A DNA stretch of 64,000 bases from a bacterium (GTDB lineage: Bacteria; Patescibacteriota; Minisyncoccia; Phycocordibacterales; UBA2100). The notes under the pieces were generated by a model that saw nothing but the letters and a program-made list of their open reading frames with translations, did no database searches and had not been told where the DNA came from. This document shows, in pieces, positions 20,303-42,601 of this stretch. The position numbers and the translations under genes are program-made. The stretch spans positions 19,947 through 83,946 of the forward strand of contig JAUSGQ010000007.1 in assembly GCA_030674455.1 (NCBI GenBank). The letters run 5' to 3'. Numbering within the stretch: the first letter of the stretch is position 1; each line of letters begins with the position of its first letter.

Positions 20303-22378
20303 ATGAGTAAATCTGGCGTATTCAAGCTACGTAGTGATTATCGACCAGCTGGAGATCAACCTACGGCTATAAAGTCACTCGTCGACGGCTTGAAAGAAGG
20401 GAAACGACACCAGACACTACTTGGCGTCACCGGTTCCGGCAAGACCTTTACGATGGCAAATGTGATTGAAAAAACGCAGAAACCTACGCTCGTCATTGCG
20501 CACAACAAGACGCTTGCCGCTCAACTCACTGCGGAATATCGCGAGTTCTTTCCCGAAAATGCAGTGCATTACTTTGTTTCTTATTACGATTACTATCAGC
20601 CGGAAGCATATATGCCGATAAGCGATACATATATCGAAAAAGAATCGCAAGTAAATGAGGACATAGAAAGGCTGCGGCACGCGGCGACGCAGGCGCTGCT
20701 TACAAGAAAAGATGTCATTGTCGTCGCGTCGGTCTCCTGCATTTATGGCCTAGGTAGCCCGTTTGAGTACGAGAAAGTAAACATGAAGCTCACGAAAGGA
20801 GAGCCGCTCACTCGCGCCGCTCTTATGAGACGACTAATCGGTATGTATTTCGAAAGAGTTGCCGGCGACCTTTCGCCCGGCACTTTTCGCGCGCTTGGCT
20901 CGTACGTGGAGATCATGCCGGCAAACGAGAGAATTATTAAAAGAATCGACCTCTCACAAGGTAAAGTCTCTAAAATAGAAGAAATCGACGCGACAACGCG
21001 TGAATCATTAGGGACGCACGACGCAATATTTGTTTTCCCGGCGAAGCATTATGTGACACCAAAGGATGTGCAAGAACTTGCACTTACTGATATTGAGCTC
21101 GAGCTTAAGGAACAGTTAAAAAAGTTTGATGCGGCTGGCAAAATATTGGAGGCGGAGCGATTGAAGCGAAGGACTCGTCAGGACATCTCAATGATACGCG
21201 AGTTCGGATTCTGCAACGGTATTGAAAATTATTCGCGGCACTTCGACAGACGGCAAGCGGGAGAGCCGCCGCATACTCTGCTTTCGTATTTTACGAAGAA
21301 TGTTGGAAGTTCAACGGATTTTCTCACAATTATAGATGAATCGCACGTTACCGTTCCGCAGATAGGCGGCATGTACGCAGGAGACCGCGCGCGCAAGGAT
21401 ATGCTGGTGCAACACGGATTCCGGCTTCCGAGCGCGATTGATAACAGACCGCTCAATTTTGATGAATTCCAAGAGCGTGTCGGACAAACAATTTATACGA
21501 GCGCGACACCCGGAACGTATGAATTAGAACATAGCGGCAAACCTATCGAACAGGTCATCCGCCCTACAGGACTCGTTGACCCAGAAATTATCGTGAAGCC
21601 CATCGTGGGCGGTGGACCGAGGACGGTCCTCAAGGGAGCCCGAGGACCGTCCTCGGTCCCCGAGAAGTATCCGGGGCAGGTAAAGGATTTCATCGCCGAG
21701 GCAGAAATCGTTACCAAGCGGGGCGGACGCTCGATGGTCACCGTCCTTACGAAAAAAATGGCAGAAGATCTGACAACCTTTTTGCTCGAAAAGAAGATTA
21801 GAGCGCAGTATGTACATTCCGACGTGAAAACAATCGAAAGAATAGAAATTCTTACGAATTTCCGCAAGGGCACGTTTGATGTATTGGTCGGCGTCAACTT
21901 ATTGCGAGAAGGATTGGATTTGCCCGAAGTCGAGCTCGTAGGAATTATGGACGCCGATAAAGAGGGCTTTCTGCGTTCCGAAACTTCACTCATCCAAACA
22001 ATCGGCCGAGCTGCGAGAAACGTGCTGGGTCGTGTGATTTTGTACGCGGATTCTCCTACGGGTTCTATGGAGAGGGCAATTCGCGTGACAAATGAGAGGC
22101 GCGCCCGCCAAATTGAATACAATAAGAAGCATGGTATTACGCCAAAAACGATAAAGACTAGGATAAAAGATATCGTGGGAGATATCGTAAGCGCAAGAAG
22201 GCGTGCGGTATTTGACCTTGCAAAGCTCGATTCTGCGGCATATGCGGGAAGCAAGGCAAGCTTAATCACAGCCAAGCGACGAGAAATGCGAGAGGCAGCG
22301 AGTATACTTGATTTTGAAACAGCCGCGCTTTTGCGGGATGAAATTCAAGAACTTGAAAAGGGTAAACGAAAGCGATAA
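20303..22378 (+). CDS. uvrB: excinuclease ABC subunit B
   Basis: Helicase motifs GVTGSGKT, the beta-hairpin region YYDYYQPEAY and a C-terminal UVR domain. Confidence 0.95.
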   Translation: MSKSGVFKLRSDYRPAGDQPTAIKSLVDGLKEGKRHQTLLGVTGSGKTFTMANVIEKTQKPTLVIAHNKTLAAQLTAEYREFFPENAVHYFVSYYDYYQPEAYMPISDTYIEKESQVNEDIERLRHAATQALLTRKDVIVVASVSCIYGLGSPFEYEKVNMKLTKGEPLTRAALMRRLIGMYFERVAGDLSPGTFRALGSYVEIMPANERIIKRIDLSQGKVSKIEEIDATTRESLGTHDAIFVFPAKHYVTPKDVQELALTDIELELKEQLKKFDAAGKILEAERLKRRTRQDISMIREFGFCNGIENYSRHFDRRQAGEPPHTLLSYFTKNVGSSTDFLTIIDESHVTVPQIGGMYAGDRARKDMLVQHGFRLPSAIDNRPLNFDEFQERVGQTIYTSATPGTYELEHSGKPIEQVIRPTGLVDPEIIVKPIVGGGPRTVLKGARGPSSVPEKYPGQVKDFIAEAEIVTKRGGRSMVTVLTKKMAEDLTTFLLEKKIRAQYVHSDVKTIERIEILTNFRKGTFDVLVGVNLLREGLDLPEVELVGIMDADKEGFLRSETSLIQTIGRAARNVLGRVILYADSPTGSMERAIRVTNERRARQIEYNKKHGITPKTIKTRIKDIVGDIVSARRRAVFDLAKLDSAAYAGSKASLITAKRREMREAASILDFETAALLRDEIQELEKGKRKR
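21614..21662. repeat. in-frame palindromic insert in uvrB (CCGAGGACGGTCCTC-AAGGGAGC-CGAGGACCGTCCTCGG), encoding GGGPRTVLKGARGPSSVPE
   Basis: The inverted repeat is visible. Relative to E. coli UvrB as I recall it, this region carries an extra segment of about 20 aa. Confidence 0.7.
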
Positions 22379-22488
22379 TTCTCAATTTACAATTTTGCAA
22401 TTTGCAATGAATTTACAATGATTAATTTACAACATTTATAAATTGAACCTTGATTGAAAATCGATAATTAAAAATTTAAAATTCAAGC

Positions 22489-23415
22489 ATGACCTTAGAC
22501 ATACGACATAATGTCCCCCTCGCTCCTCTGACCACTTTTAATATCGGCGGTCCGGCCAGATATTTCACCTACGTTCGCACAGAAAATGATATGCGGGAGG
22601 CGGTACTCTGGGCAAAGCAGAAATCAATCGACTTTGTTATTCTTTCCGGCGGCAGCAATGTGCTTATACCGGATGAAGGATTAAACAAACTCGTTATCCA
22701 TGTCATTAAGGGCGATTTTAGTATTCGGGAACAGTCGCTCACAGCCGATGCGGGATGTAATCTTTTGAAACTCATTCGAGCCGCCAGCGAAAACAATTTG
22801 GGAGGGTGGGAGAAACTGGCCGGCATTCCTGGGACGATTGGAGGTGCCATTCGCGGCAACGCAGGCGCGTTCGGGACTGAGATCAAAGACTTGCCCGTGA
22901 AAGTTCGTGCGCTGAATTATAAAACTTCGGAAATTAAGGAATTCCAAAATGCGGATTGCGGTTTTGCTTACCGCCGCAGCTTCTTTAAAGACAATCCGGA
23001 GTGGATTATTACGAATTTAGCAGTCAGACTGCTAAAAGTTGCCGAAGTTGAAAGTATAAGATTGATAGAGTACACCATAGCCGAACGAGAACAACGCCAT
23101 TTGCAGAATATACAAGCCGCAGGTTCGTATTTTATGAATCCGATTGTTCCGCCTGTGATTCAAGAACTCTTTGAGAACGATAAGGGTTTAAAATCAAAAG
23201 AGAATAGAGTCCCCGCGGGGTGGCTTATAGAAAGGGCAGGTATGAAAGGAGTAAAAGTCGGTGATGCCATTTCGAGTATTCAGCACCCAAATTATTTGGT
23301 TAACGATGGCAATGCGACCGCCAAAGATGTCAAACAGCTGGCACAAAGTATTAAGGACGCCGTTCACGCAAAGTTCGGTGTCAATCTCTGTGAAGAGGCA
23401 GTGATATTGTCTTGA
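22489..23415 (+). CDS. murB: UDP-N-acetylenolpyruvoylglucosamine reductase
   Basis: FAD-binding domain with the GGSN motif and a MurB C-terminal domain. Confidence 0.85.
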   Translation: MTLDIRHNVPLAPLTTFNIGGPARYFTYVRTENDMREAVLWAKQKSIDFVILSGGSNVLIPDEGLNKLVIHVIKGDFSIREQSLTADAGCNLLKLIRAASENNLGGWEKLAGIPGTIGGAIRGNAGAFGTEIKDLPVKVRALNYKTSEIKEFQNADCGFAYRRSFFKDNPEWIITNLAVRLLKVAEVESIRLIEYTIAEREQRHLQNIQAAGSYFMNPIVPPVIQELFENDKGLKSKENRVPAGWLIERAGMKGVKVGDAISSIQHPNYLVNDGNATAKDVKQLAQSIKDAVHAKFGVNLCEEAVILS

Positions 23416-23461
23416 TGAATGTCACTGCAACCTGTAACCTGTATCCTATAACCTACCCGAT

Positions 23462-24034
23462 ATGGAAAACTTTGCTGAAAGGACTCATGAGGCCATGCAA
23501 GATGTCGTTATGGTGCCGGGCGCTCCGGGGCCAGCCGTTCACTACTACATGATTCGAGGCGGTTCTAAGCAAAGAAACATTACAATTTGGCAAACGGGAA
23601 CGGTTGGCGGCGAATATATAAAAACGTACGGACACTACCATGTCGGTGATTTAGATGAGACTTATAAAATTCTGGAAGGAGAGGGAATCGCTCTTCTTCA
23701 AAAACTAGTAGTGGAAAATGGCGTTCCCGTTATTGACAGAGTCGATGAATTCAAAGCAATTAAGGTGAAGGCGGGCGATTCCATATACATGCCCCCGGGG
23801 TATGGGCATTTGGTAGTGAATACGGGAAGGACATGGCTCGTAACATCAGACGACAGCCCCGTCGATGGTTTTAACGATTCGGCATCTATGCCAGGACACG
23901 CTGATTACGAACCGGTAAAAAAGATGCGTGGATTTGCATATTACGTTGTCGAAAAAAGCGGCGCGCCCGCCCTCGTGCGCAATCCATTATATAAAGAAAT
24001 ACGTTCAGAAATATTAAATGGATTGTCTCAATAG
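23462..24034 (+). CDS. cupin-type glucose-6-phosphate isomerase (archaeal cPGI-like)
   Basis: At 190 aa with TYGHYH, ILEGEG and YMPPGYGHLVVNTG motifs, it resembles Pyrococcus-type cupin PGI in motifs and length as I recall them. Confidence 0.6.
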   Translation: MENFAERTHEAMQDVVMVPGAPGPAVHYYMIRGGSKQRNITIWQTGTVGGEYIKTYGHYHVGDLDETYKILEGEGIALLQKLVVENGVPVIDRVDEFKAIKVKAGDSIYMPPGYGHLVVNTGRTWLVTSDDSPVDGFNDSASMPGHADYEPVKKMRGFAYYVVEKSGAPALVRNPLYKEIRSEILNGLSQ

Positions 24035-24075
24035 TCATGATATATTTTAGTTTGGCATAAATTTGGGAGGACGCG

Positions 24076-24489
24076 ATGAATAAAAAACAGCTGCGGCTGT
24101 TTGTATTACCAGGGTCGTTATTAGCGCTGACGTTAGCGCTAATGATGTGGAACGGTAACACTTTTGATCTTTTTACTACCAATATTTGGTATGACAAGAT
24201 CATGCATTTGCTGGGAGGCGCCGGAGCGTGCATTCTAACGCTCTGGATTGCATCTATGCTAACGGATGATACGCGATGGAAAATTCTTCGCTTCGGTCTT
24301 CCGTTCGTAGGTGTAATTGGGGCCATTTGTTTCGGTCTAGGTTGGGAAGGATTAGAAGATTACTTCCCGATAATAACCGACTATGTCATCCAAAGCTCGG
24401 GGGATACCCTAGCGGATTTGTTTTTTGACATAGTCGGGGGCTATATCTCCTCCAGATACTATGAAGAAATCTGGAGGTGGCAATTATGA
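24076..24489 (+). CDS. hypothetical membrane protein
   Basis: 137 aa with 3-4 TM helices. Confidence 0.4.
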   Translation: MNKKQLRLFVLPGSLLALTLALMMWNGNTFDLFTTNIWYDKIMHLLGGAGACILTLWIASMLTDDTRWKILRFGLPFVGVIGAICFGLGWEGLEDYFPIITDYVIQSSGDTLADLFFDIVGGYISSRYYEEIWRWQL

Positions 24490-24490
24490 A

Positions 24491-24536
24491 GGCGACGAGG
24501 AATCGGCGATGACGCTACCTCGTCGCCGATTCTTTT
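24491..24536 (+). terminator. rho-independent terminator GGCGACGAGG...CCTCGTCGCC plus T-run
   Basis: Perfect 10-bp stem with a T-run immediately after it. Confidence 0.7.
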
Positions 24537-24590
24537 ATGTTATATTGCTCAGTACCAACCCTAGCGCAAAGCGAGGGTCGGTTTGTGTTT

Positions 24591-27287
24591 ATGTCAAAAA
24601 AAAACGAACATTCAGGGGAAGCCGAGAAAATCGTAGTTAAAGGCGCACGCACGCATAACTTGAAGAACATCACGGTAGAAATACCGCGGAATAAAATGGT
24701 GGTTTTTACAGGCCTTTCCGGCTCTGGGAAATCATCTCTCGCTTTTGACACCATATTTGCCGAGGGCCAGCGCAAATACGTGGAGTCTCTTTCTGCCTAT
24801 GCCCGTCAGTTCTTGCGGCAAATGCAAAAACCGGATGTCGATGAGATATCCGGCCTATCTCCTGCCATTTCAATAGACCAAAAATCGCGCTCGAATAATC
24901 CACGTTCCACAGTCGCTACAATTACCGAAATCTATGATTATCTGCGTGTTCTCTATGCGAGAGTAGGCAAACCTCACTGCACTATCTGCGGCAGGGAAGT
25001 TAAGAAACATACGAATGAGGAGATACTTGAGTCAGTTCTCAAAATAGTGGACAAGGCTCGAAAGTACCAAGGAGAGACCTTAAAATACCCAAGGTCTCAC
25101 CTTAAGGTTCAAGATAAGAAGCTCACAAAAAATGTATCGAGCGCAAAGGTCACAATAACGTCACCGGTGGTTGTCGGTAGAAAAGGGGAGTACTACCAGC
25201 TTCTTTATGACTTGCTCAATAAGGGATTCGAGAAAGTAATAATTGATGGCGAAGAGAAGAAGCTGCGTGAAAGAATCATTCTCGAGAAGAATCATAAACA
25301 CGATATAGATGTCGTGGTCGATGAAATATTTGTCAGTGAATTTGCCGACGATGCGAAAGCTGCGCGCGAACGGGCATCGGAAGCTATCGAAAGAGCTCTG
25401 CATGAATCCAATGGGCTGGTAAAGATAATAGGCGCGAGCGGAGAATCACACATTGTCTCGGCAAAGTTTATGTGCCCGTACGACGGATTCTCATTTCCTG
25501 AAATCGAGCCGCGGCTCTTTTCGTTCAATTCTCCGCATGGCGCTTGCCCCGCATGCAATGGCCTAGGTTCTAAGTATTTCTTTGGCGACGAGCCGTGCGA
25601 TGTGTGTAATGGTGCCCGGTTGCGTCCGGAGGCATTAAATGTGTTTCTTGGGACAAATAGTCGAGGAGACACCTCGCAAGCGAGGAGCCACCTCGACTCA
25701 CCCCATGGTCTGCATATTGTCGATTTAAGCTCGTCATCTATAGACGACGCAAAGAAATTCTTTGACTCGCTTAAACTTACCAAAAAGGAAGAGGAAATAT
25801 CCAAGGTCGTAATCAAAGAAATTATGAGCCGGCTGCGCTTTATGCAAGATGTCGGCATTGAATACTTAACACTCGACCGAAAAGCCAACACTCTATCGGG
25901 CGGTGAAGCACAGCGCATTCGTCTGGCATCACAGCTTGGAAGCGGGCTCGTTGGCGCGCTCTATGTGCTTGATGAGCCGACAATCGGGCTTCACCAGCGC
26001 GACAACGACAAACTTATTGAGACTCTCAAACACCTGCGCGATATCGGCAATACAGTAATCGTGGTAGAACACGATGAGGACACCATTTTCGCATCCGATT
26101 ACATCGTGGATCTAGGCCCTGGCGCTGGCATTCATGGAGGTAATGTCGTGGTGTCGGGGTGGCTCGATGAGCTATTGACCGCCAAATCCAATAAGTCCGG
26201 CTCGCGTACTCTTGCGTATCTACGTGGAGAGTCATCAATTGAAACGCCGGAGAAATGGCGAACTGCTGACAGAGGAAAGATAAAAATTCGCGGGGCTTCA
26301 AAATTTAACATTAAAAATATAAACGTTGATATACCGCTCGGCAAACTTGTGGCAATCACGGGGGTGTCTGGTTCCGGCAAGTCGACGTTTCTCTATGAGA
26401 TGCTTCATCGCAATTTGCTGGCGCGCTTTGATAAGCGGTACCGTACGGCAAAAATCTACAACTGCAAGGAATTCAGCGGAACGGAATATCTTTCACGCTC
26501 CATATTGATTGATCAATCGCCCATAGGAAGAACCCCGCGCTCAAATCCTGCAACGTACACAGGTGCTTTCACGCACATTCGCGACCTATTCGCGATGAGC
26601 GAGGATGCTCGAGCGCGCGGATGGGGTCCGGGACGATTTAGCTTCAATGTAAAAGGCGGGCGATGTGAGGTATGCCAGGGCAACGGCCTTGTCGCTGTCG
26701 AAATGCACTTTTTGCCGACGGTCTATGTCACATGCGACATGTGCAACGGAAAACGTTTTATGAAGGAGACACTTGATGTTAAATATAAAAAGAAAAGCAT
26801 TTATGACGTGTTATCCATGACCGTCGAAGAGGCCTCGGCCTTCTTTGAGGATGTTCCTGCAATATCTGACAGGTTAAAAACTTTGTCTGATGTTGGCCTG
26901 GACTATCTAGAACTCGGCCAGAGCGCGACAACTCTATCCGGCGGTGAAGCGCAGCGAGTGAAAATTGCGTCAGAACTATATCGGCCGTTGGATGCAAAAA
27001 CGATGTACCTGTTGGATGAACCCACTGTGGGACTCCACTACGACGACGTGCAAAAACTTATCGATATATTGCAAAAGCTGGTTCAGCGGGGAAATAGCGT
27101 CGTTGTTATCGAACACAATCTTGATGTCTTGAAATGCGCAGATTGGATTATGGATATGGGACCGGAAGGAGGCGCCGGAGGCGGCGAAATCGTAGCCCGA
27201 GGAACGCCGCTCGAAGTTTCTAAAACCGACGGCTCATACACCGGATATTATCTGAAGCGAGTTTTGAAGAGAAAGGTAAAAGATTGA
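24591..27287 (+). CDS. uvrA: excinuclease ABC subunit A
   Basis: Two ABC modules with zinc-finger Cys clusters. The start is set at Met 24591 to avoid overlapping the terminator. Confidence 0.95.
25660..25697. repeat. in-frame imperfect palindrome or direct repeat in uvrA (GTCGAGGAGACACCTCGC-AA-GCGAGGAGCCACCTCGAC), encoding [14 protein letters not shown]
   Basis: It uses the same CGAGGA/TCCTCG word as the uvrB insert. Relative to E. coli UvrA as I recall it, this region is about 18 aa longer. Confidence 0.55.
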
Positions 27288-27303
27288 GATGTCATCTCAA
27301 TCT
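27281..27303. terminator. hairpin AGATTGAGATG-T-CATCTCAATCT overlapping the uvrA stop codon (family of 3)
   Basis: 11-bp arms. Related copies lie at 36390..36420 and 41847..41867. Confidence 0.5.
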
Positions 27304-27538
27304 TTTCATCCTAAAGGGGTTTTAAAGCTATCCGGAGCTTAAGCTTGACTCAAATTCTGCAGGGTGTACAAAGCCATTATCATCGGCTGTTTTGTGGTCG
27401 ATGATCCGTTCCTCTGAGGGAAAGTGAGGGATTGTAGGTGGCATAAAAAGCCACACGCGGGATGTATTCAAAGCATCCCCAATGTGACCGGACTCTGACA
27501 CAACACGATTCGTGTGTTGCAGTGGCCGGTCTTTTTCT

Positions 27539-30500
27539 TTATGTATATGCATCGACCGAGATAGATTTGAGTTCAGACGCCTTAATTCCTGCAAAAGCCA
27601 TGATGAATGCCTCGGCAAGCTGGCGATTGGTTATGAGCGGTATATTCAAGTCCACCGCTTTTCGGCGGATTATGTAGCCGTCTATCGCATCGCGGCCAAA
27701 TGCTTGAGCGGGAATATTTATTATCAAATCTACTTTACCTTTCTCTATAAGCGTTCCTACATTGGGCTCCTTGCCTCCGATTTTATAAACCTTTTCACAT
27801 GCAATTCCATTTTCTCTCATAAAATCGGCAGTATGCTCGGTGGCAAATAACTTGAAATTCATTTTGGCCAATTCTTGCAGAGCGGATAGTAATTTAATTT
27901 TATTTTCCTCTTTTCCCAAGGAAATCAGTATATTTCCCGACGCTTTGGTCGGGATCCCGACCTCGCTTCGCGAGCGTCGGGACTTATACGGCAATCTCCG
28001 ACGCTTTGGTCGGGGCAGGCGGAATCCTGAAGCAAGCATTGATTTAATCAGAGCTTCTGAAAATGTATCACCAAAACAAGCGACTTCGCCGGTAGAAGCC
28101 ATTTCCACGTTGGAAACGGGGTCGGCACCCTTTATGCGCGCATAGGAGAATTGCGGCGACTTTACTGCAATGTAATCAAGTTCAAGGGTGCGATAATCGC
28201 CGGAAACGTCTTTACCGAGCATCGCGCGCGTAGCAATATCAATAAAGTTATATCCCGTAGCTTTTGACACGAAAGGAAAGCTTCGAGATGAACGAACATT
28301 GCACTCAATGACTTGCAAATGGTTATCTTTTGCGATGAATTGAATATTGAACGGGCCGGTAATTTTCAGTTCTTTGACGACGTCCTTCGTGATGTGTTTA
28401 GCTCGTCGAATTGTCTCCATATATGTGCGCTGGGGAGGCAAAACCACCGTAGCGTCGCCAGAGTGCGTGCCGGCATTTTCGACGTGCTCCGTAATCGCGT
28501 AAATTATGAGCTTCCCGCGCGAAGCAACTCCGTCAATTTCAATTTCCCGCGCATTCTCGATAAATTTGGAAATCACGACCGGATGTTCCGTAGAGATATC
28601 AACCGCGCGTTTGAGAAAGCGCAAAAGAGATGTCTCGTCGTGCGCAACGCTCATCGCAGAGCCGGAGAGAACATATGACGGCCGGACAAGCACGGGATAT
28701 CCGATTCGCGCCGCAGCTATCGCTGCTTCTTTATGAGTAGTAAGTTCTACCCACTCGGGCTGATCAATTTCGAGCCTATCAAGAAGTTTAGAGAATGTGT
28801 GCCTGTCTTCGGCGCGGTCTATATCTTCTGGTTTTGTTCCCATGATTCTTACTCCTCGCTTATGCAGTGGGAGCGCGAGATTATTCGGAATTTGGCCGCC
28901 AGTAGAAATTACGACTCCTCGCGCTTTCTCAAATTGATAAATATCTAGAACACGCTCAAGCGAAAGTTCTTCAAAATACAGTCGGCTCGACATGTCGTAG
29001 TCGGTTGAAACGGTCTCCGGATTTGAATTTATCATTATCGTTTCGTATTCATTTTTTGAAAGAGTTTTTAACGCTTGTACGCAAGACCAATCAAATTCTA
29101 CCGACGAACCGATGCAATACGGTCCGCTTCCAAGGACGATCATACTTTTCTTGGTGCGACCTATATCATTCTCGGTCCCGTTATACGTCACATACAGATA
29201 ATTTGTTTTGGCGGGAAATTCTCCAGCCAAAGTGTCGATTTGCTTTATAACTGGCAGGATTTTGTGGCGCATTCGCTCCTGTCGGATCTTATCCTCAGTA
29301 CTTTTAATCAATGTGGCAATTTGAATATCAGAAAAACCAAGCTTCTTAGCCTCGAGCATGTCTTCTCTAAGAAGGTCTGACCTTCCAGGAAGGTCAGACC
29401 TTCTGAGATTTCTCGAGCAACGCATGATGTTCTTCATTTTTTCTAGAAACCACGGATCAATGCCGCCGGAAAGACGGCTGATCTTTGAGACGGACGTACC
29501 TCTGCGAAGTGCCTCTGCAATGGCAAAAATGCGGCGGGTAGTCGGGTGCTTGATTTCATCCAGATAATTTGCCACGCGAAAGTTACCATTTTTATGCGCT
29601 ACAAAACCATCCGCGCCAATGGAAAGCATACGAATAGCTTTCTGCAGTACCTCCTCAAAACTTCTGCCGATTGCCATCACTTCTCCCACACTTTTCATCT
29701 CCGTACCAATTTGCGTGATGGCATTCTCAAATTTCGTCAAATCCCAGCGCGGCATTTTAAGCACGATGTAATCAAGCGCCGGCTCGAAACAGGCCGTCGT
29801 GGATTTGGTTACCGAGTTTTTTAGTTGCGGCAGAGTAAAGCCCATTGCGAGTTTCGCCGCAATGAACGCGAGCGGATATCCTGTGGCCTTTGAGGCAAGC
29901 GCAGATGAGCGGGAAAGGCGCGCATTAACTTCTATGACGCGATAATCTCCGGTTTTCGGATGAAGCGCGTACTGTATATTGCATTCTCCCACGACGCCGA
30001 GATGCCTGATGGTCTTTATCGCGATTTCGCGCAAGCGATGATACTCCTCGTTCGTAAGAGTTTGTGACGGCGCCACGACCATACTTTCGCCCGTATGAAT
30101 GCCCATCGGGTCTATGTTTTCCATATTGCAAACGGAAATGCAGTTGTCGGTTCTGTCGCGCACAATTTCATACTCAACTTCTTTCCAACCGCACAAATCT
30201 TCTTCGATCAATACCTGCGGACTCGAGCCAAAGATTTCTGACAGTTTAGCGACAAGTTCTTTTTCCGTACGAACCACTCCGGAGCCAAGGCCGCCCAAGG
30301 CGAATCCCGCGCGCAACATGACCGGATAACCGATTTTTGTCGCCGCCTTTTTGGCATCAGATATATTTCTTGCTGCGAAACTTCGCGCTGTCTTAACATC
30401 AATTTTTTGCAGCCGCTTTATGAACATGTCTCTATCTTCTGTTTCGCGTATGACAGATACCGGTGTTCCCAAAACCTGCACTTTGTATTTAGAGAGAATC

Positions 30501-30838
30501 CCTTTCTCCTCCAGTTCAAGGCCGAGATTAAGCGCGGTTTGGCCGCCGAACCCTAGGAGAATCGCATCGGGTTTTTCTTTCTTGATAACCTGTACGGCAA
30601 ACGGCAAGGTAAGTGGCAAGAGGTAGACGACGTCTGCTACGTTTTCACTCTTTGCATCAGTTCCTTGAGCTGGCGAGTCCGTTTGAACTGTTGCGATATT
30701 CGGATTTATGAGTATGACGCGAATGCCTTCTTCTTTAAGAGCCTTAATCGCTTGTGTGCCGGAGTAATCAAATTCTCCGGCCTGACCGATTTTAAGACCG
30801 CCTGAACCGAGCAACAATACTTTTTTTATGGTCGTCAT
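27539..30838 (-). CDS. carB: carbamoyl-phosphate synthase large subunit
   Basis: 1099 aa with two ATP-grasp halves and an MGS-like C-terminal domain. Confidence 0.95.
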   Translation of the reverse strand: MTTIKKVLLLGSGGLKIGQAGEFDYSGTQAIKALKEEGIRVILINPNIATVQTDSPAQGTDAKSENVADVVYLLPLTLPFAVQVIKKEKPDAILLGFGGQTALNLGLELEEKGILSKYKVQVLGTPVSVIRETEDRDMFIKRLQKIDVKTARSFAARNISDAKKAATKIGYPVMLRAGFALGGLGSGVVRTEKELVAKLSEIFGSSPQVLIEEDLCGWKEVEYEIVRDRTDNCISVCNMENIDPMGIHTGESMVVAPSQTLTNEEYHRLREIAIKTIRHLGVVGECNIQYALHPKTGDYRVIEVNARLSRSSALASKATGYPLAFIAAKLAMGFTLPQLKNSVTKSTTACFEPALDYIVLKMPRWDLTKFENAITQIGTEMKSVGEVMAIGRSFEEVLQKAIRMLSIGADGFVAHKNGNFRVANYLDEIKHPTTRRIFAIAEALRRGTSVSKISRLSGGIDPWFLEKMKNIMRCSRNLRRSDLPGRSDLLREDMLEAKKLGFSDIQIATLIKSTEDKIRQERMRHKILPVIKQIDTLAGEFPAKTNYLYVTYNGTENDIGRTKKSMIVLGSGPYCIGSSVEFDWSCVQALKTLSKNEYETIMINSNPETVSTDYDMSSRLYFEELSLERVLDIYQFEKARGVVISTGGQIPNNLALPLHKRGVRIMGTKPEDIDRAEDRHTFSKLLDRLEIDQPEWVELTTHKEAAIAAARIGYPVLVRPSYVLSGSAMSVAHDETSLLRFLKRAVDISTEHPVVISKFIENAREIEIDGVASRGKLIIYAITEHVENAGTHSGDATVVLPPQRTYMETIRRAKHITKDVVKELKITGPFNIQFIAKDNHLQVIECNVRSSRSFPFVSKATGYNFIDIATRAMLGKDVSGDYRTLELDYIAVKSPQFSYARIKGADPVSNVEMASTGEVACFGDTFSEALIKSMLASGFRLPRPKRRRLPYKSRRSRSEVGIPTKASGNILISLGKEENKIKLLSALQELAKMNFKLFATEHTADFMRENGIACEKVYKIGGKEPNVGTLIEKGKVDLIINIPAQAFGRDAIDGYIIRRKAVDLNIPLITNRQLAEAFIMAFAGIKASELKSISVDAYT
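27935..28015. repeat. structured insert in the carB C-terminal region (direct repeats TCCCGACGCTTTGGTCGGG x2 with CTCGCTTCGCGAG between), encoding RPKRRRLPYKSRRSRSEVGIPTKAS on the minus strand
   Basis: Nested hairpins are visible. An arginine-rich segment of about 25 aa is absent from E. coli CarB at this position, as I recall it. Confidence 0.6.
29370..29404. repeat. perfect 17-1-17 palindrome AGAAGGTCTGACCTTCC-A-GGAAGGTCAGACCTTCT in frame in carB, encoding RRSDLPGRSDL
   Basis: The palindrome reads RSDLPGRSDL on both strands. It appears to be an 11-12-aa insertion relative to other CarB sequences. Confidence 0.75.
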
Positions 30839-30843
30839 ATGAG

Positions 30844-30943
30844 TGCCAATCTACAAATGGACTCCAATCTACAAATAACTACGAATAAGCAATGCTCACA
30901 TTTGTAGCTATTCGTAGTATTCGGATGATTCGTAGATTGGGAC
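30844..30943. repeat. ~100-bp composite palindromic repeat (CCAATCTACAAAT ... ATTCGTAGATTGG), family copy R1 of 6, REP/BIME-like
   Basis: It shares words with the copies at 42502, 47001, 48156, 49350 and 61654, and it fills the carA-carB spacer. Confidence 0.85.
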
Positions 30944-30955
30944 ATAATAAATATT

Positions 30956-32014
30956 CTAGATGCTGATAGAACGTATAAACTCATCAAATATCCATGCGGT
31001 GTCCGTTGGCCCCGGTGCTGCCTCGGGGTGGAACTGCACAGCTCGCCAGGCTTTTGATTTGTGCTTGATGCCCTCCACGCTTCCGTCATTCGCGTTGGTG
31101 AACCATACAGCCCAATCATGCGGAAGCGATTTTGCGTCAACAGCATACCCGTGATTTTGCGATGTTATGTAACAACGGCCTGTCTCCTGATCTACGCATG
31201 GTTGATTTTGTGAGCGATGACCGTATTTGAGCTTGTATGTACTTCCGCCCGCGGCGAGCGCCAAGAGTTGAGTTCCGAGGCAGATGCCTAATATCGGCTT
31301 TGGCATAAGCATTGCACGCTTGAGATTTTCAATTGTATTGCCGCACATGTTTGGGTCGCCGGGCCCGTTGGAAATCACAAGCGCATCATGCGGCTCATTC
31401 GCAAAATCATAGTCCCATGGAACGCGTACGATCGTAATTTCAGGGCGCACGAGTGAGCGCAAAATATTTTCCTTCATCCCGCAGTCAACTATAACGATGG
31501 TAGTGGCCCCATTGCCGTACGTTTCCGGCTTTTTTATACTGACCCGCGCAACGAGATTCTCCTTATTCGGGTCAACAAAAGCCGATGCAGTGAGGCGTCG
31601 CCTCACTGCATTCACAGGCCTGGCGTCTATTATGCCGAGCATCACACCGTGTTCGCGCAATTTTTTTGCAAGCGCACGCGTATCTACGCCCGTAATTGCC
31701 GGAACACCGGAGCGCTTAAGCCACTCCGATAATGACTCGCACGCCAACTGGTGCGAATAATTCTCGGAATAGTCCGCCACGATTAGGCCAGCGGCCTGGA
31801 TTTTATCGGATTCAAAATATTTACGTTCTGGCACGCCATAATTTCCCACCAGAGGATAGCTCAAGACAATGATTTGTCCTGCATATGAGGGGTCCGATAA
31901 GCTCTCTACATATCCGACCATCCCCGTGTTAAAAACCACCTCGCCGGATGCCGATACGGGTGCGCCAAAGCTTTTACCCTCAAATACTGTCCCGTCTTTA
32001 AGAGTTAATTTCAT
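30956..32014 (-). CDS. carA: carbamoyl-phosphate synthase small subunit (glutamine amidotransferase)
   Basis: GATase class I motifs, including ICLGHQ-like GICLGTQ. Confidence 0.9.
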   Translation of the reverse strand: MKLTLKDGTVFEGKSFGAPVSASGEVVFNTGMVGYVESLSDPSYAGQIIVLSYPLVGNYGVPERKYFESDKIQAAGLIVADYSENYSHQLACESLSEWLKRSGVPAITGVDTRALAKKLREHGVMLGIIDARPVNAVRRRLTASAFVDPNKENLVARVSIKKPETYGNGATTIVIVDCGMKENILRSLVRPEITIVRVPWDYDFANEPHDALVISNGPGDPNMCGNTIENLKRAMLMPKPILGICLGTQLLALAAGGSTYKLKYGHRSQNQPCVDQETGRCYITSQNHGYAVDAKSLPHDWAVWFTNANDGSVEGIKHKSKAWRAVQFHPEAAPGPTDTAWIFDEFIRSISI

Positions 32015-32238
32015 AATGTATGAGACCCTACTTCGCTTCCTCCTACGTCAAGACTACGGAGGACAAGAAAGCTACGAAGGGTTGCTCTCTCATGAAAATG
32101 CCCGCTTACTGCGGGCAGAAATGGAGAGCAAAAAAATACACCCGGGCGGGTGTTTCTCTTATTAATTCCTTGCGAGTTCATTAAAGTTGAATTATATGCC
32201 CATATTTGCCGGTGTCAAATTTTAACCTGGCTGTGGAT

Positions 32239-33561
32239 ATGTCGCGTGAGTATACTGGAAACATGGTGCGCGATGACTTAATCAAATTTAAATTGCCCGA
32301 CAGTCCGGGTATATACTATTATCGAAATTCGAGGGGCAAAATTCTATACATTGGTAAAGCTACATCTCTGCGCGACCGCGTACGGAGCTATTTTTTGTCA
32401 GGTCTATCGGAATCTCGAAGCACGGCAATCGCAGCAATGATAGATGAGACGCACTCCGTCACATGGCAAACGACCGAGTCGGTTCTTGAAGCTCTGATAC
32501 TCGAAGCGAATGAGATAAAAAAACATCAGCCGAAATACAATGCACGAGAAAAGGACGACAAGAGCTTTAATTTTCTCGTAATCACAAAGGAAGATTTCCC
32601 GCGCGTTTTAGTAATTCGCGGCCGCGAACTATTTTCTCCACTTATCGCTAATCGCTATTCGCTAACCGCTATCTTCGGCCCATATCCGCAGGGACGTTCA
32701 CTGCAAGAAGCTCTGAAAATCGTTCGGAAAATATTTCCTTTCCGCGATAAATGCATTCCATGTGACACTGCGGAAAAATCCTTACTTTCTAATTCGCGCG
32801 AATTAGAAAGTAAAGAAACTCATGTACATCTTAAACATAAATGCAGGCCGTGCTTCAATCATCAGATAGGATTATGTCCCGGTGTATGCAGTGGGGAAAT
32901 ATCAAAAAACGATTATGCTCGAACTATACGACACATTAAGACTCTATTTTCAGGGAAAATAAAGAGGTTGAAGAGGGATCTGGAACGAGAAATGAGAGCC
33001 GAATCGAAAGCCGAGCGATTTGAAAAGGCCGCCATATTGCGTCGACAAATTGGTTCGTTAAACCACATACGCGACGTATCGCTAATAAATAACGATAACA
33101 TGGCCGATTTACCCAGGAAACCTACGAGGATAGAGGCGTATGACGTGGCACATACGTCGGGATCGGAGACAGTAGCCGTAATGACTGTTGTGAATAATGG
33201 CGAGCCCGAAAAGAGTTCCTACAGAAAATTCAAGATTCAAACTGCTGCAAACGACGACATTGGAGCACTCAAAGAGGTTCTCTCACGCCGCCTGGCGCAC
33301 TCGGAGTGGCCCTTGCCGAGCGTGTTTGTTGTGGACGGAGGAACTGCGCAATTGCGTGCGGCCGCAAATATTCTAAAAGACGCTGGTATAATGATTCCCG
33401 TGGTATCTGTGGTAAAAAACGAATTTCATAAACCCGAACGGCTCATGGGAGATACGAATGCAATTAAGACCTTGGGAAAAGAAATTCTTCTTGCCAATCA
33501 AGAAGCGCATCGTTTTGCGATTACGTATCATAGAAAACGACGAGGTCGACTAACGATATGA
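32239..33561 (+). CDS. uvrC: excinuclease ABC subunit C, short form lacking C-terminal HhH
   Basis: GIY-YIG motif (PGIYYY...ILYIGKA), a UVR domain and an RNase H-like endonuclease domain. The track start at 32206 is also possible. Confidence 0.85.
   Translation: MSREYTGNMVRDDLIKFKLPDSPGIYYYRNSRGKILYIGKATSLRDRVRSYFLSGLSESRSTAIAAMIDETHSVTWQTTESVLEALILEANEIKKHQPKYNAREKDDKSFNFLVITKEDFPRVLVIRGRELFSPLIANRYSLTAIFGPYPQGRSLQEALKIVRKIFPFRDKCIPCDTAEKSLLSNSRELESKETHVHLKHKCRPCFNHQIGLCPGVCSGEISKNDYARTIRHIKTLFSGKIKRLKRDLEREMRAESKAERFEKAAILRRQIGSLNHIRDVSLINNDNMADLPRKPTRIEAYDVAHTSGSETVAVMTVVNNGEPEKSSYRKFKIQTAANDDIGALKEVLSRRLAHSEWPLPSVFVVDGGTAQLRAAANILKDAGIMIPVVSVVKNEFHKPERLMGDTNAIKTLGKEILLANQEAHRFAITYHRKRRGRLTI
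32782..32813. repeat. perfect 32-bp palindrome TTACTTTCTAATTCGC|GCGAATTAGAAAGTAA in frame in uvrC (encodes LSNSRELESK)
   Basis: TTCGCGCGAA core, as in the intergenic copies and the yggS copy. Confidence 0.8.
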
Positions 33562-33574
33562 TTATGAGTGTTGT

Positions 33575-34069
33575 ATGAGTAAAGAAAACGGAGAAGGCGG
33601 GAATGTCGTCAATTTGAAACGGCGATTGGAACAACTAAAGGCGACGCGTAGCCTAAGACCTACAGCAGACGCTCAACAGCAGGAAACCATCCCACCGCTA
33701 ACGGACAAAGAAGTGTTACAAAAAGCTAGAGAGATTGTGGAAAGATTCCCGGGCATTGCCTCGTTGGCTAAAGACTTAGATAGTCAAGAGATCGCCCTTG
33801 GCCGGATACCGAGTGAAAGAAATGTTGAACTGGCACGTGCTGGTTATGAGGAAGAATTGGGACGAGCCCGAGAGAGAGCCGAGGTGAATGTCCGAAACAA
33901 ACCTGAATCCCCATTACAGAATAGACTTCAGGAGGATGTCAGAATCATGTTCGCTGGATATGAATGGACGCAACCGGTGTTTTTCAATACCAAATATGCC
34001 GCCTATGCCCGCGCCTATCTCGAAAAATTTGATCCAAAATTCAAACTGCCTGATTTTACCGACATATGA
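33575..34069 (+). CDS. hypothetical protein
   Basis: 164 aa. Its stop overlaps the start of the next ORF (ATGA). Confidence 0.4.
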   Translation: MSKENGEGGNVVNLKRRLEQLKATRSLRPTADAQQQETIPPLTDKEVLQKAREIVERFPGIASLAKDLDSQEIALGRIPSERNVELARAGYEEELGRARERAEVNVRNKPESPLQNRLQEDVRIMFAGYEWTQPVFFNTKYAAYARAYLEKFDPKFKLPDFTDI

Positions 34070-34461
34070 TGAATAAATGGAAGCAAGGAAAAGTCGTTAG
34101 CTTAAAAGTTGCGCAGTTGAAAATTCAGCGCAGGGAGACATCCGAACTTTCGGCCAAAGAAAGAATGCACCTCTCGCTATTCGCAAAAGAGACTATTCCT
34201 AAACTTAACGAAAAAGTCTTGATGGAAGACTTTATGAGAAGATTTCATAAGGCAGATCTATCCAAGGTCAGACACAACATCGAAGAGATAAGAAGAGATA
34301 TACGGCGGGAGATCGGCGGTTTTACGGAGATTGTTAAACAGAGCTACAAACTTAAAGACCTAGAAGAGTTACTGCTTAAATACAAAACTGGAGAAAGTTC
34401 TGCACCCTTAACGTTTATTTACGCAGCCGCGCAGGAATATATTAAACGAGTTTACCTTTAG
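34066..34461 (+). CDS. hypothetical protein
   Basis: 131 aa. It is translationally coupled to the upstream ORF. Confidence 0.4.
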   Translation: MMNKWKQGKVVSLKVAQLKIQRRETSELSAKERMHLSLFAKETIPKLNEKVLMEDFMRRFHKADLSKVRHNIEEIRRDIRREIGGFTEIVKQSYKLKDLEELLLKYKTGESSAPLTFIYAAAQEYIKRVYL

Positions 34462-34488
34462 GATGAATTGAGGTGTTATAATTTCGAA

Positions 34489-35460
34489 ATGTCGCGGACT
34501 ATAGTCGGCGTTTTGCGCGGGGGGACATCAAACGAATATGCTCTTTCGCTCAAAACGGGTGCGGCTCTTCTTTCTGCACTACCGGAAGAGAAGTATGACA
34601 CTCGCGATATTCTCGTGGACAAGAGCGGCGTGTGGCATTCGCGAGGAATTCCAATGGATGCTCCGCGTGCGCTGGCGCAAATCGATGTCGTTCTGAACGG
34701 ATTGCACGGCGGCGCCGGCGAAGATGGCACGGTGCAGCGCCTATTAGATAGGGCAGGAGTCGCATATGCAGGTTCGCGCGCGCGAGGCGCAGCTGTTTCG
34801 CTCAACAAATCCCTTTCGCACGAAATTTTGCAGAAAGCGGGAATACAGATGCCGCGCGCCGTTTCATTTACCCTTAACAATCAAATTGATACCGGCGAGA
34901 TGGCTCAAGCGGTTTTCTCTCAATTCGGCCCTCCATATATTGTAAAGCCCGTGAATGATGGCGCTTCTCATGGCATTCGTTTTGCCGTCAATCTGCTCGA
35001 GCTGCCGGATGCTATCGGCGACATTTTGGATGAATACGGAGCTGCCCTGATTGAAGAGTTTGTCTTAGGGGATGAAGTCAGTGTGGGTGTAATTGATAAT
35101 TATCGCGGACAAGAATTGTACGTTTTGCCGCCGGCACATGTGCATTACCCCGATGAGAGCAAATTTCTCACTCACCATGTACATGAGAACGCGACTGCGA
35201 AATACGAATGCCCGAGCAATTTCACGCACGAGGAAAAACAAGCTATTGAAGAAATGGCGCGGACCGCTCACCGCGCACTCGAACTTTCGCATTTTTCACG
35301 CGCCGACATTATCTTGACGCGCCGAGGCCCGTACCTCTTGGAGGTTAACGCATTGCCCGGATTGTATTCCGGAGCATCCCTTCCGGTAATGCTTGAAGCC
35401 GTCGGAGCATCAACAGGGGAGTTTGTAGAGCATGCAATCGGTCTCGCGAAGCAATATTAG
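34489..35460 (+). CDS. ddl: D-alanine--D-alanine ligase
   Basis: ATP-grasp fold with Ddl N-terminal motifs (GGxSxE). The likely start is Met 34489. Confidence 0.85.
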   Translation: MSRTIVGVLRGGTSNEYALSLKTGAALLSALPEEKYDTRDILVDKSGVWHSRGIPMDAPRALAQIDVVLNGLHGGAGEDGTVQRLLDRAGVAYAGSRARGAAVSLNKSLSHEILQKAGIQMPRAVSFTLNNQIDTGEMAQAVFSQFGPPYIVKPVNDGASHGIRFAVNLLELPDAIGDILDEYGAALIEEFVLGDEVSVGVIDNYRGQELYVLPPAHVHYPDESKFLTHHVHENATAKYECPSNFTHEEKQAIEEMARTAHRALELSHFSRADIILTRRGPYLLEVNALPGLYSGASLPVMLEAVGASTGEFVEHAIGLAKQY

Positions 35461-35507
35461 ATTATTTGCTAGTCTGGCAGAAAACCTGTAACCTACACCC
35501 TGTTCAT

Positions 35508-35580
35508 GGGCCGGTAGTTCAGTGGTAGAACGTCTCATTTGCAATGAGAAGGTCGGGGGTTCGATTCCTCTCCGGTCCAC
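35508..35580 (+). tRNA. tRNA-Ala (anticodon UGC)
   Basis: Acceptor stem GGGCCGG/CCGGTCC with the G3:U70 Ala identity pair, anticodon loop CTCATTTGCAATGAG (TGC) and T-loop GGTTCGATTCC. Confidence 0.9.
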
Positions 35581-35650
35581 CCCGTTAGAGATTAGTAACG
35601 TCTTTATTACTGATTCGTCGAATAACTCTTTTATATATCTAAAGGTATAA

Positions 35651-36376
35651 ATGATCTCTAACGGGGTCCACAAAATGATTAGTGCAAATCTTAGGAATAT
35701 AGAAGGCGAAATGAGTAGCGCGGGTAGGAAAGTTACCTTGGTTGCTGTAACAAAAAGCGTGGGGATAGACGAAACAAACGAAATCATTAAAGCGGGAGTG
35801 CGCGCAATCGGAGAAAATAGAGTCGAGGATTTTGAAAAGAAAATCACGCAATTGCTTCCGGTAGAAAAGCATTTCATCGGGCAAATTCAATCGCGAAAGA
35901 TTAAACGAATTGTAGAACTATTTGATGTTATTCAATCTGTCGATTCAATCGAGCACTTAGAGAAAATCGAGAGGGAGGCAGTCTCTCAAAACAAAAAAAT
36001 AAAAATTCTTCTACAGTTCAATATTTCACGGGAGGCGCAAAGAGGCGGCTTCGAACCAAGTGATGTCGTACAAATTATTAAAGCTATTGGAAGGTATTCA
36101 CTATCGGTTAATTCGCGCGAATTAACCGATAAGAGCAATAGCATTTTGTCGATTCAACATGTGGAAATCATCGGAGTGATGGGAATGGCTAGCGATACTA
36201 CAGATACTGAAGTGGTGAGAGAGCAGTTTCGCTTGCTAAAAGATATTAGAGACCAATTGCAGTCGAAATATCCTAAAATCAAAGAACTGTCGATGGGCAT
36301 GTCTAGTGACTGCCAAATCGCCCTGGAGGAAGGCGCCACAATACTGCGAATCGGCAGGGCACTATTCAGCAATTAG
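35651..36376 (+). CDS. yggS: YggS-family pyridoxal phosphate homeostasis protein
   Basis: VTKSV, GENRVQ-like GENRVE, HFIGQIQSRK and SMGMSSD motifs. Confidence 0.85.
   Translation: MISNGVHKMISANLRNIEGEMSSAGRKVTLVAVTKSVGIDETNEIIKAGVRAIGENRVEDFEKKITQLLPVEKHFIGQIQSRKIKRIVELFDVIQSVDSIEHLEKIEREAVSQNKKIKILLQFNISREAQRGGFEPSDVVQIIKAIGRYSLSVNSRELTDKSNSILSIQHVEIIGVMGMASDTTDTEVVREQFRLLKDIRDQLQSKYPKIKELSMGMSSDCQIALEEGATILRIGRALFSN
36105..36128. repeat. perfect 24-bp palindrome CGGTTAATTCGC|GCGAATTAACCG in frame in yggS (encodes SVNSRELTDK)
   Basis: Same TTCGCGCGAA core and the same reading frame (NSREL) as the uvrC copy. Confidence 0.8.
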
Positions 36377-36389: not shown

Positions 36390-36420
36390 CAATCCAATGA
36401 GATGTCATCTCATTGGATTG
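36390..36420. terminator. hairpin CAATCCAATGAGATG-T-CATCTCATTGGATTG, 14 nt after the yggS stop
   Basis: 15-bp arms. It belongs to the same GAGATGNCATCTC family as 27281 and 41847. Confidence 0.5.
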
Positions 36421-36948: not shown

Positions 36949-37155
36949 ATCTGTCGAGGATAGCGAGAGAAGTGAAAGAGTACTCTCTTTCACTTCTGAG
37001 CGGCGCAGACAGCAAAGGTGATAACCCCGCGGCTTGCCGCGGAAACCTTTCATACGCATCTGACCTATAACCTTTTACCTGACACCTGTAACCTGTTGCG
37101 TGATATCCACAAGCTAGTAAAGGAAATTACACTCTGATGAGTCATACTGTACTCA

Positions 37156-41444: not shown

Positions 41445-41515
41445 AGAAGCACAGCTTGAGGACTAGACTAGACCTTGCTGTGATGTTCAGCGTGGGTTAT
41501 AGTGTTCGCTTCATG

Positions 41516-41824: not shown

Positions 41825-41846
41825 GGCGGTTTTCTTATCCCAATCG

Positions 41847-42597: not shown

Positions 42598-42601
42598 CAC
42601 T

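Follow-up and report, generated by a model that had tools for sequence, protein, structure and literature searches.

Why do housekeeping genes that lie within 16 kb of one another in a bacterial genome carry hairpins that leave the reading frame intact, and where do these hairpins come from? The question was raised by a 64-kb stretch of DNA (GenBank assembly GCA_030674455.1, contig JAUSGQ010000007.1, positions 19,947 to 83,946; hereafter the window, with coordinates counted from its first base) from a Kaiserbacteria-like bacterium of the Candidate Phyla Radiation (CPR). An original prediction, made from the bases of this window, had listed in-frame palindromes in uvrB, uvrA, carB (twice), uvrC and yggS. 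All of these were found, together with a second site in uvrA and a hairpin in carA that had not been listed. The prediction described the host genes as essential; the in-frame palindromes are indeed there, but housekeeping is the better label. We consider it probable that the palindromes are several hairpin repeat families of the repetitive extragenic palindromic (REP) or REPIN (REP doublets forming hairpins) type, which populate a Kaiserbacteria-like CPR clade, are spread by a REP-associated tyrosine transposase (RAYT) or a similar activity, and are filtered by selection where they fall in genes.

Hairpins exceed expectation in the window and its clade

Hairpins were discovered by a palindrome search followed by inspection of segments that are extra relative to homologues, and their excess was assessed against codon permutation and synonymous-codon shuffling of the window coding sequence (CDS). 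The 54.9 kb of CDS contained 11 hairpins of at least 11 paired bp where 1.4-1.65 were expected (control maximum 4), and four hairpins of at least 15 paired bp where the controls contained none. The prediction had proposed that the density of coding palindromes be compared with shuffled sequence, and composition does not account for it. When 44-nt coding windows were folded, 73 reached -20 kcal/mol or lower as compared to 17-29 in the controls, and every element folded as single-stranded DNA (ssDNA) with z = -4 to -7.5, none of 200 shuffles folding equally well. Seven of the 11 hairpins fell between 20.3 and 36.4 kb, a region holding 27% of the CDS (P = 0.013). Enrichment in nucleotide-excision-repair genes, assessed within the window alone, gave P = 0.05-0.12 and fell short of significance. 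It is scarcely credible that the hairpins reflect chance, composition or an artefact of assembling metagenome-assembled genomes (MAGs), as strong in-frame hairpins were about 8-fold rarer in the codon-shuffled controls, long hairpins did not occur there, independent assemblies agree and the frames are intact. Identical elements recur in independent assemblies from NCBI, JGI, ENA and Logan.

Synonymous shuffling abolished the hairpins, indicating that they are features of the DNA and no by-product of the peptides. This bears on the possibility that the inserts are kept for what they encode, as functional loop extensions in UvrABC, CarAB and YggS, with palindromy as a side effect. Motifs of the NS[RHC] type and PRSHLG do recur, in favour of such a role, but the peptides do not force the hairpins, the same peptide occurs in unrelated proteins, disorder is predicted for the inserts, relatives can do without them, and most copies of the largest family (E4, described below) are non-coding. 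We therefore regard selection for the peptides as very improbable.

To place the window among its relatives we compared it to about 85 kb of a single syntenic region from five related genomes (L081-L085). Among species-representative genomes the nearest UvrB loci were from Parcubacteria/Patescibacteria at 63-64% identity; the syntenic relatives, which are closer than the 64% UvrB identity, were obtained via the protein database, and UvrC relatives carry the name Candidatus Kaiserbacteria. Over 3007 aligned residues the window shared 82-84% protein and 73-75% DNA identity with L081-L084 and 74% protein identity with L085. Neighbour-joining grouped the window with L081, and L082 with L083 and L084, each at 100% support, with L085 outside. 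Hairpins at the relatives' loci numbered 3-5 where 0.2-0.5 were expected, and across the six related genomes they occurred at 8-25 times expectation. Loci from Bacillus, Neomoorella, Limnoglobus, actinobacteria and Nostoc were near expectation (0-2 hairpins where 0.3-1.8 were expected) and other CPR loci showed an intermediate excess. The hairpin excess is clade-specific.

The elements are polymorphic extra segments of their host proteins

Gene calls for uvrB, murB, uvrA, carB, carA, uvrC, ddl, yggS and a Y1 transposase were supported by Pfam. The reading frame was kept by every hairpin described below for uvrB, uvrA, carB, carA, uvrC and yggS and by the tandem heptamer run in uvrC. Most elements were extra peptide segments, filled or empty among the six related genomes at clean in-frame sites. 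The prediction had suggested looking for presence/absence polymorphism in sister genomes; it was found, so the inserts are not conserved features of these protein families.

The uvrB gene (20303-22378) carries a hairpin at 21612-21661 on the + strand (19/20 bp), an inverted doublet of GAGGACnGTCCTC that encodes GGPRTVLKGARGPSSV and folds as ssDNA at -27.1 kcal/mol (z = -7.5). The hairpin falls in a 22-aa gap relative to the UvrB structure PDB 2fdc, and the window UvrB is about 15 aa longer than the nearest CPR UvrBs. At this site the window, L081 and L084 have three different palindromes and L085 has none, which fits a permissive loop.

Two sites were found in uvrA (24537-27287). Site 1 (25069-25103, + strand) is a doublet of inverted E5-like units, AAGGAGAGACCTT ... 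AAGGTCTCACCTT, within a segment of about 29 aa that is extra relative to UvrA in the PDB, about 6-9 aa of it being common to L083 only. Site 2 (25659-25698, + strand) belongs to family E3, is a doublet of CGAGGAGnCACCTCG and lies within an extra segment of about 18 aa relative to a solved UvrA structure. This site is filled in the window and L082 and empty in L081, L083, L084 and L085. The same element also occurs in uvrC of L082 and L083 and, as peptide, in many UvrC relatives.

The carB gene (27539-30838, - strand) likewise holds two elements. Site 1 (29366-29408, - strand, 20/21 bp) is a doublet of the E5 type, made of two inverted AAGGTCnGACCTT units, that encodes RRSDLPGRSDLL and folds as ssDNA with z = -6.9. 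L081 and L085 have a single CTACCAAGGTCnnACCTTGGTAG here, L082 and L083 have arm or loop variants and L084 is degenerate; the window is longer by 18 nt, an inverted duplication that makes the doublet. Site 2 (27935-28015, - strand) is gapped, consisting of the E1-family hairpins CCCGACCAAAGCGTCGG, then TCCCGACGCTCGCGAAGCGAGGTCGGGA, then TCCCGACCAAAGCGTCGGGA, and adds about 25 residues relative to the homologue structure. It is filled in the window and L084 and empty in L081, L082, L083 and L085. The carA gene (30956-32014, - strand) contains the E2 hairpin ATGCAGTGAGGCGnCGCCTCACTGCAT at 31585-31611 (- strand), which encodes NAVRRRLTAS, is filled in the window and L083 and is empty in L081, L082, L084 and L085.

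The uvrC gene (32206-33561, true start probably 32263) contains the tandem heptamer run that had been predicted, four copies of GCTAnnn at 32644-32671 on the + strand (period 7 and 4 copies by Tandem Repeats Finder), encoding LIANRYSLTAI. Orthologous arrays use other units, GCTACAA/G in L081 and GCTAAAA in L085, and in L082, L083 and L084 the array is broken up by hairpin inserts. Downstream, at 32779-32816 (+ strand), uvrC carries an E4-family palindrome with the centre ATTCGCGCGAAT that encodes SLLSNSRELESKE. This site is filled in many UvrC relatives and empty in P0008, P0010, P0017, P0036, P0066 and P0107. UvrC length across the clade ranges from 402 to 529 aa owing to inserted segments. 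UvrC proteins of this clade that are free of inserts are short (402-430 aa), and the helix-hairpin-helix family was not among the Pfam matches reported.

The E4-family palindrome of yggS (gene 35651-36376, palindrome 36102-36131 on the + strand) encodes LSVNSRELTDK within a segment of about 18 aa that is extra relative to YggS in the PDB. The insert is polymorphic, filled or empty among relatives at 66-71% identity, and its arms show compensatory changes as compared to L082 and L083. The genes of the relatives also hold private inserts that are absent from the window. Further hairpins within open reading frames (ORFs) of the window were seen at 57405-57430 (alanyl-tRNA synthetase, AlaRS), 4820-4847 (ORF 4269-4874), 24120-24143 (ORF 24076-24489) and 2401-2444 (ORF 2386-2640).

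The original prediction had asked whether the inserts map to loops, and in predicted models of YggS and UvrC they are placed in low-confidence loops. The YggS model has a mean predicted local distance difference test score (pLDDT) of 82, and its sole segment below 50, residues 143-158, is the E4 insert, modelled as a coil that links a helix to a strand. In the AlphaFold2 model of UvrC (mean pLDDT 66.7) the insert region 168-196 scores about 32 and the heptamer-encoded residues 127-130 score below 50.

Elements are shared across the species tree and keep their stems

Shared elements were compared with their flanks in the genomes that have them. The carB site 2 element is identical to that of L084 at 48/48 positions while its right flank matches at 41/60, and the carA element is identical to that of L083 at 28/28 positions while its flanks match at 40/60 and 45/60. 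For uvrA site 2 the element matched at 29/34 and the flanks at 41/60 and 38/60, and for yggS the element matched at 30-32/35 and the flank at about 38/60. A run of 48 identities has a probability of about 3e-7 if each base is 73% likely to match. The pattern of sharing is incongruent with the species tree: to account for any one shared element, the same junction must have gained it twice or more, or it must have been lost precisely three or more times, or a very short patch must have passed laterally. Empty sites resemble those of the outgroup. Similarity between flanks breaks down only a few bases away from the element, which makes a normal tract of short-patch homologous recombination an unlikely source of the identical elements.

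Covariation was assessed in 12 copies of E4. Of the stem cells, 92% were paired, 9/15 pairs had changed on both sides, and 0/500 shuffles reached the observed score. The uvrC element of L083 is a hybrid of two arm variants. Some YggS relatives have a segment of 11-15 aa (e.g. PLRIKLRAGTA) at the exact centre of E4, between NS and REL (P0243, P0265, P0274, P0271 and P0260; the 11-aa form is present in three relatives), and resident hairpins thus appear to be insertion targets themselves.

Several of these observations could also be read as palindromes made in place, by template switching at quasi-palindromes, hairpin-templated repair and replication slippage, the elements being non-mobile. The 18-nt inverted duplication at carB site 1 acted on a hairpin already present in relatives, arms differ between orthologous copies yet stay complementary, the L083 uvrC element is a hybrid, orthologous uvrC heptamer arrays have genome-specific units, the window holds about 19 period-7 arrays, and no target-site duplications were found at the junctions. 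Such processes leave unexplained why identical sequences of 18-48 nt recur across unrelated genes and across genomes, why an element matches at 48/48 positions when the coding DNA of the two genomes is 73% identical, and why one hairpin family lies on both sides of RAYT in three genomes. We consider an origin in place unlikely; in situ processes probably help to enlarge and maintain resident elements rather than create them.

The elements form dispersed families within and between genes

The sequences recur as families. Family E4 (consensus CTATCGGCTAATTCGCGCGAATTAGCCGATAG) encodes NS[RHC]EL and is present at two uvrC sites, in yggS and in two intergenic copies of the window at 1546-1581 (AACTACTTGCTTATTCGCGCGAATAAGCAAGTAGTT) and 2615-2650. 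Family E3 is found in uvrA of the window and L082, in uvrC of L082 and L083, and at 50957-51000 (- strand), where it lies at the 5' edge of the PD-(D/E)XK nuclease ORF and folds at -26.3 kcal/mol. The E1b unit CCCGACCAAAGCGTCGGG occurs in carB, in uvrB of L081 and in uvrC of L083. E1b, E3 and E5 were each found at 3-7 places across the six genomes, and E2 and E6 at one site each. The repeat unit is a stem-loop of 13-36 nt, often paired as an inverted doublet. REPs form stem-loops of 20-40 nt, and the units here, 13-48 nt long, qualify as such. REPs are also present in many copies, which applies to E4 and weakly to the remaining families. The ends of some elements carry a short tag: GGTAG in E5, AGTAG in the intergenic E4 copies of the window and GATAG in the E4 consensus.

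E4 was then scanned for in metagenome sequence. At least 120 stretches matched, and 80 of these loci were counted, yielding 96 copies with up to four per 8.7 kb. Coding hosts, identified by eye, were Fmt, a ComEC-like protein, TatD, a glycosyltransferase and YggS. Of the 96 copies, 22 lay where 100 codons or more were free of stops; when complete ORFs were used, 7/96 copies lay inside and 32/96 lay within 60 nt downstream. E4 resides mostly just downstream of genes, the classical habitat of REPs, and the 20-36 kb region of the window, with nine intragenic elements, departs from this habit. Two of the three E4 frames contain stops, and all coding copies are read in the open frame, as ANSxELA. 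The original prediction had offered an insertion mechanism that selects frame-neutral lengths; as E4 is mostly extragenic and its coding copies use the one open frame, frame-keeping looks instead like purifying selection on insertions that are blind to frame.

The position of E4 behind genes also fits hairpins that are selected as mRNA or DNA structures, such as RNase or gyrase sites, pause or attenuation signals and protein-binding sites, and that regulate their host genes. REPs in other bacteria are thought to act as RNA elements (PMC3733652), most extragenic E4 copies directly follow the 3' ends of ORFs, as terminators or mRNA stabilisers would, compensatory changes preserve the stems, and the elements are more conserved than the flanking coding DNA. 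But the same gene is filled or empty among close relatives, which argues that the elements are dispensable, the sequences at the one uvrB site are unrelated, an Rfam gathering search of the window returned tRNA-Ala only, and dispersal over many gene families is left unexplained. Regulation as the reason for the hairpins is in our view doubtful. The prediction had also raised a function at the RNA or DNA level. Some such role may exist, since the arms co-vary. An essential one is made less likely by the uneven distribution of the elements over close relatives.

A RAYT-like gene is flanked by hairpins of family E5

The window contains a Y1/IS200-type transposase ORF at 52728-53510 (- strand). 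The RAYT-like Y1 (HUH) transposase that it encodes occupies 52728-53420 (- strand, 230 aa), is identical to P0121 and was given the start of P0121. The protein matched Pfam Y1_Tnp at 33.9 bits (cut-off 23), and a PDB sequence search returned no match. RAYT homologues of 224-240 aa are widespread in Patescibacteria. H85, H87, Y145, H147 and N149 were invariant in 16 of these homologues (H-x-H plus Tyr), and from what is generally known of IS200/IS605-type enzymes we take H85/H87 to be the HUH motif and Y145 the catalytic tyrosine.

The E5 hairpin CTACCAAGGTnnnACCTTGGTAG, with the core CAAGGTnnnACCTTG, is present at both ends of the RAYT gene in the window and in two further loci, L206 and L207, whose RAYT homologues share 68% and 55% identity with that of the window. 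One window copy (CTACCAAGGTCTTACCTTGGTAG, 52712-52744) overlaps the RAYT stop codon and has an inverted loop. The other (53440-53464) lies 20 nt upstream of the RAYT start and, by the P0121 start, outside the coding sequence. This layout of E5 and RAYT in three genomes is the classical REP-RAYT arrangement, and E5 is demonstrably the cognate family of the RAYT-like gene. E5 also occurs in frame in carB and, as an E5-like doublet, at uvrA site 1. A palindrome inside the RAYT gene itself, which had been counted among the inserted elements, does exist (53236-53260, an E5 copy encoding NQGKTLVE), but it encodes residues that are conserved as YQGKTLVD in RAYT homologues of the same length and is no insertion.

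The RAYT neighbours, an M16 peptidase, AlaRS and PD-(D/E)XK and Mrr-like nucleases, are alike in the window (49460-53510) and L206 (4001-8693) and differ in L207. In L206 the RAYT gene also adjoins a uracil-DNA glycosylase and a DNA_binding_1 (methyltransferase-type) gene. The conserved neighbourhood is consistent with a domesticated, vertically inherited gene among DNA-handling genes.

How the elements may spread

On the reading that we favour, the units would spread as single-stranded hairpins via the RAYT or a similar ssDNA-dependent route that is blind to genes. Coding copies would persist only if they add a length divisible by three, if the frame in which they are read is free of stops and if they are placed in a linker or surface loop; this filter would make the elements look frame-keeping. 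Resident elements would then grow by inverted duplication, as from singlet to doublet at carB site 1, and by nested insertion, and the complementarity of their arms would be upheld through correction templated by the hairpin itself or through selection acting on it. That the units insert, and that the RAYT takes part, is inferred.

A number of results weigh against this explanation. The RAYT-like protein scored 43.6 bits against NCBIfam REP_Tyr_transpos, under the cut-off of 80, the RAYT link holds for E5 alone, and a tblastn search for RAYT on the E4-bearing metagenome contigs, which are short, found none. The GTAG-type tag is absent from E1, E2, E3 and E6 and from the RAYT-flanking hairpins of L207. 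By eye, no target motif or target-site duplication was seen at the E1, E2 and E3 junctions, and the sequences compared showed no direct sign of transposition, either as an event or as an intermediate. Identical elements at identical codon junctions in genomes that are not sisters are hard to obtain by untargeted insertion. Some copies are present without lengthening the protein, a hint of overwriting rather than insertion; examples are the single E5 in carB as compared to human CPS1, E5 in RAYT and, by eye, E4 in Fmt. Copy numbers for most families are drawn from 64 kb plus the roughly 85-kb syntenic region.

The observations on junctions and on protein length would be accommodated if the elements spread by site-directed copying or conversion that writes a hairpin cassette into or over loop-coding segments. 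Such copying would explain identical 28-48-nt cassettes at the same codon junctions in non-sister genomes, copies that add no protein length, and the possible preference for nucleotide-excision-repair genes. We give this route a low probability. If it is true, the repair-gene preference would be a conflict between element and host over the system that handles hairpin DNA.

Three further candidates were set aside. Ribosomal bypass (hopping) and a mini-intein were rejected, since no stop interrupts the frame of the elements and their length is far too small. A miniature inverted-repeat transposable element (MITE) was ruled out because no duplication was seen at the filled/empty junctions of carB site 2 and carA, inspected by eye, and the window contains no parent insertion sequence (IS).

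Taken together, the interpretation given in the original prediction was correct in that the palindromes are non-random features of the nucleotide sequence and are mostly extra segments, but it overlooked the shared families and the REP that flanks the RAYT gene.

Other repeats of the window

The window contains additional repeats between its genes. Imperfect intergenic palindromes of about 98 nt lie at 30846-30943, 42503-42600, 47020-47117, 48157-48254, 49350-49447 and 61652-61752. They are built of 9-10-nt CTAC/GTAG units (CTACAAATRG / ATTCGTAG) bounded by CCAATCTAC ... GTAGATTGG, fold as ssDNA at -18.7 kcal/mol (z = -5.1), and resemble clusters of the REPIN or bacterial interspersed mosaic element (BIME) type with a GTAG tag. 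A small hairpin family, GATTGAGATGnCATCTCAATC, was seen at 27278-27306, 36390-36420 and 41846-41866, at or after the stops of uvrA, yggS and ORF 41456-41824, in the manner of a terminator or a 3'-end REP. Other long perfect intergenic palindromes occur at 750-787 and 1393-1426 (ACATTCCAAyATTCT...), 45496-45535 (TATAACGCTAGCAAATGCG...), 55434-55469 (TGTACATACTTCATGCG...) and 14686-14719 (TCAACGATATCTCACG...), several of them centred on GGTC/GACC or CGGTCG.

The approximately 19 tandem period-7 arrays of the 64 kb are nearly all intergenic, with the units ATACTGA, AACCTGT, ACTACTA, AATCCTA, AAGTATC and others. Arrays were located at 374-406, 2688-2719, 8143-8213, 22383-22421, 23425-23454, 37063-37096, 50343-50423, 51851-51866, 53631-53659, 58507-58538, 59737-59857, 61876-62017 and 62428-62553. 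They often consist of inverted blocks and could form long hairpins between genes. A 70-nt direct repeat (14423-14492 and 14533-14602, 86% identical) lies at and just past the end of a MacB-like gene and contains CTGATGAGTCC, and CTGATGAG recurs near 5040 and 37135. An Rfam E-value search of 14300-14800, where a CUGAUGA/hammerhead-like repeat was suspected, gave no credible match.

Comparison with known systems

The original prediction had pointed to Rickettsia, and the comparison is apt. Rickettsia palindromic elements (RPEs) were reportedly found inserted in frame in genes by Ogata et al. in 2000, and we know of no dedicated transposase for them. Like the elements described here, RPEs are in-frame palindromic repeats in unrelated housekeeping genes that add tolerated extra peptides and are polymorphic between species. 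RPEs are however about 100-150 bp long and confined to Rickettsia, whereas the present elements are 20-50 nt long and reside in CPR, and the resemblance is functional only. In a published account RPEs stand as the in-frame case at about 150 bp, beside MITEs such as Correia, ERIC, BOX and others (PMC10969869). MITEs share with the present elements that they are small non-autonomous repeats able to create in-frame fusions; they differ in being typically longer than 100 bp with IS-matching terminal inverted repeats and target-site duplications, none of which was seen here.

A further likeness is to the small dispersed repeats (SDRs) and the short tandemly repeated repetitive (STRR) heptamers of Nostoc and other cyanobacteria. 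As Elhai et al. are said to have described in 2008, SDRs are hairpins of 21-27 nt with nested insertions, often within heptamer arrays; they reportedly occupy mainly non-coding contexts, and an RNA intermediate is said to have been proposed. By this description the elements of the window behave analogously, with mini-hairpins that have compensatory stems, nested insertions, hairpins inside heptamer arrays and a genome in which such arrays abound. They differ in phylum, and here a DNA route of the RAYT type is more likely. By analogy, the heptamer arrays and nested mini-hairpins may be the CPR counterpart of STRR and SDR, which if true would point to a common mobilisation route.

The closest match is to REP/REPIN-RAYT systems (PMC3733652; Bertels and Rainey 2011, PMC3116915), which likewise comprise many families of 20-40-nt stem-loops, inverted doublets, a position mostly just downstream of ORFs, and a RAYT gene of the Y1/HUH type with its own hairpins on either side. 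In both, a minority of copies sits in frame within genes, notably uvrA, uvrB and uvrC, adding up to 20-30 residues. Intragenic REPs tagged GTAG/CGTC, with inserts of 20-30 residues, have been described in uvrA, uvrB, the excinuclease complex, recBCD and polA (Di Nocera et al. 2013, PMC3733652), and the phyla listed there exclude CPR. The present case differs in its CPR/Patescibacteria host, in having at least nine intragenic elements in six genes within 16 kb, in several families that lack the GTAG tag beside one that is RAYT-linked, and in the abundant heptamer arrays alongside. A search of the literature on CPR, Kaiserbacteria and Patescibacteria found no relevant report of palindromic, RAYT or in-frame repeats.

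What the window holds is best read as a further case of a known kind, a REP-RAYT system whose intragenic load is unusually heavy, and as no new mechanism; such a system has apparently not been described from this phylum. It extends REP-RAYT and in-frame hairpin DNA to CPR, whose genomes of about 1 Mb are gene-dense and leave little room for selfish repeats outside genes. It also offers an independent and distant replicate of the unexplained gathering of intragenic REPs in uvrABC, although the bias seen here is only suggestive. As the inserts vary protein length, 402 to 529 aa in the case of UvrC, they may mislead alignment, phylogenetic-marker and structure-prediction work on CPR. The hundreds of related MAGs with filled and empty sites are a natural experiment on the rates of gain and loss and on the movement of elements that, among the systems compared, most resemble REPs with their RAYT.

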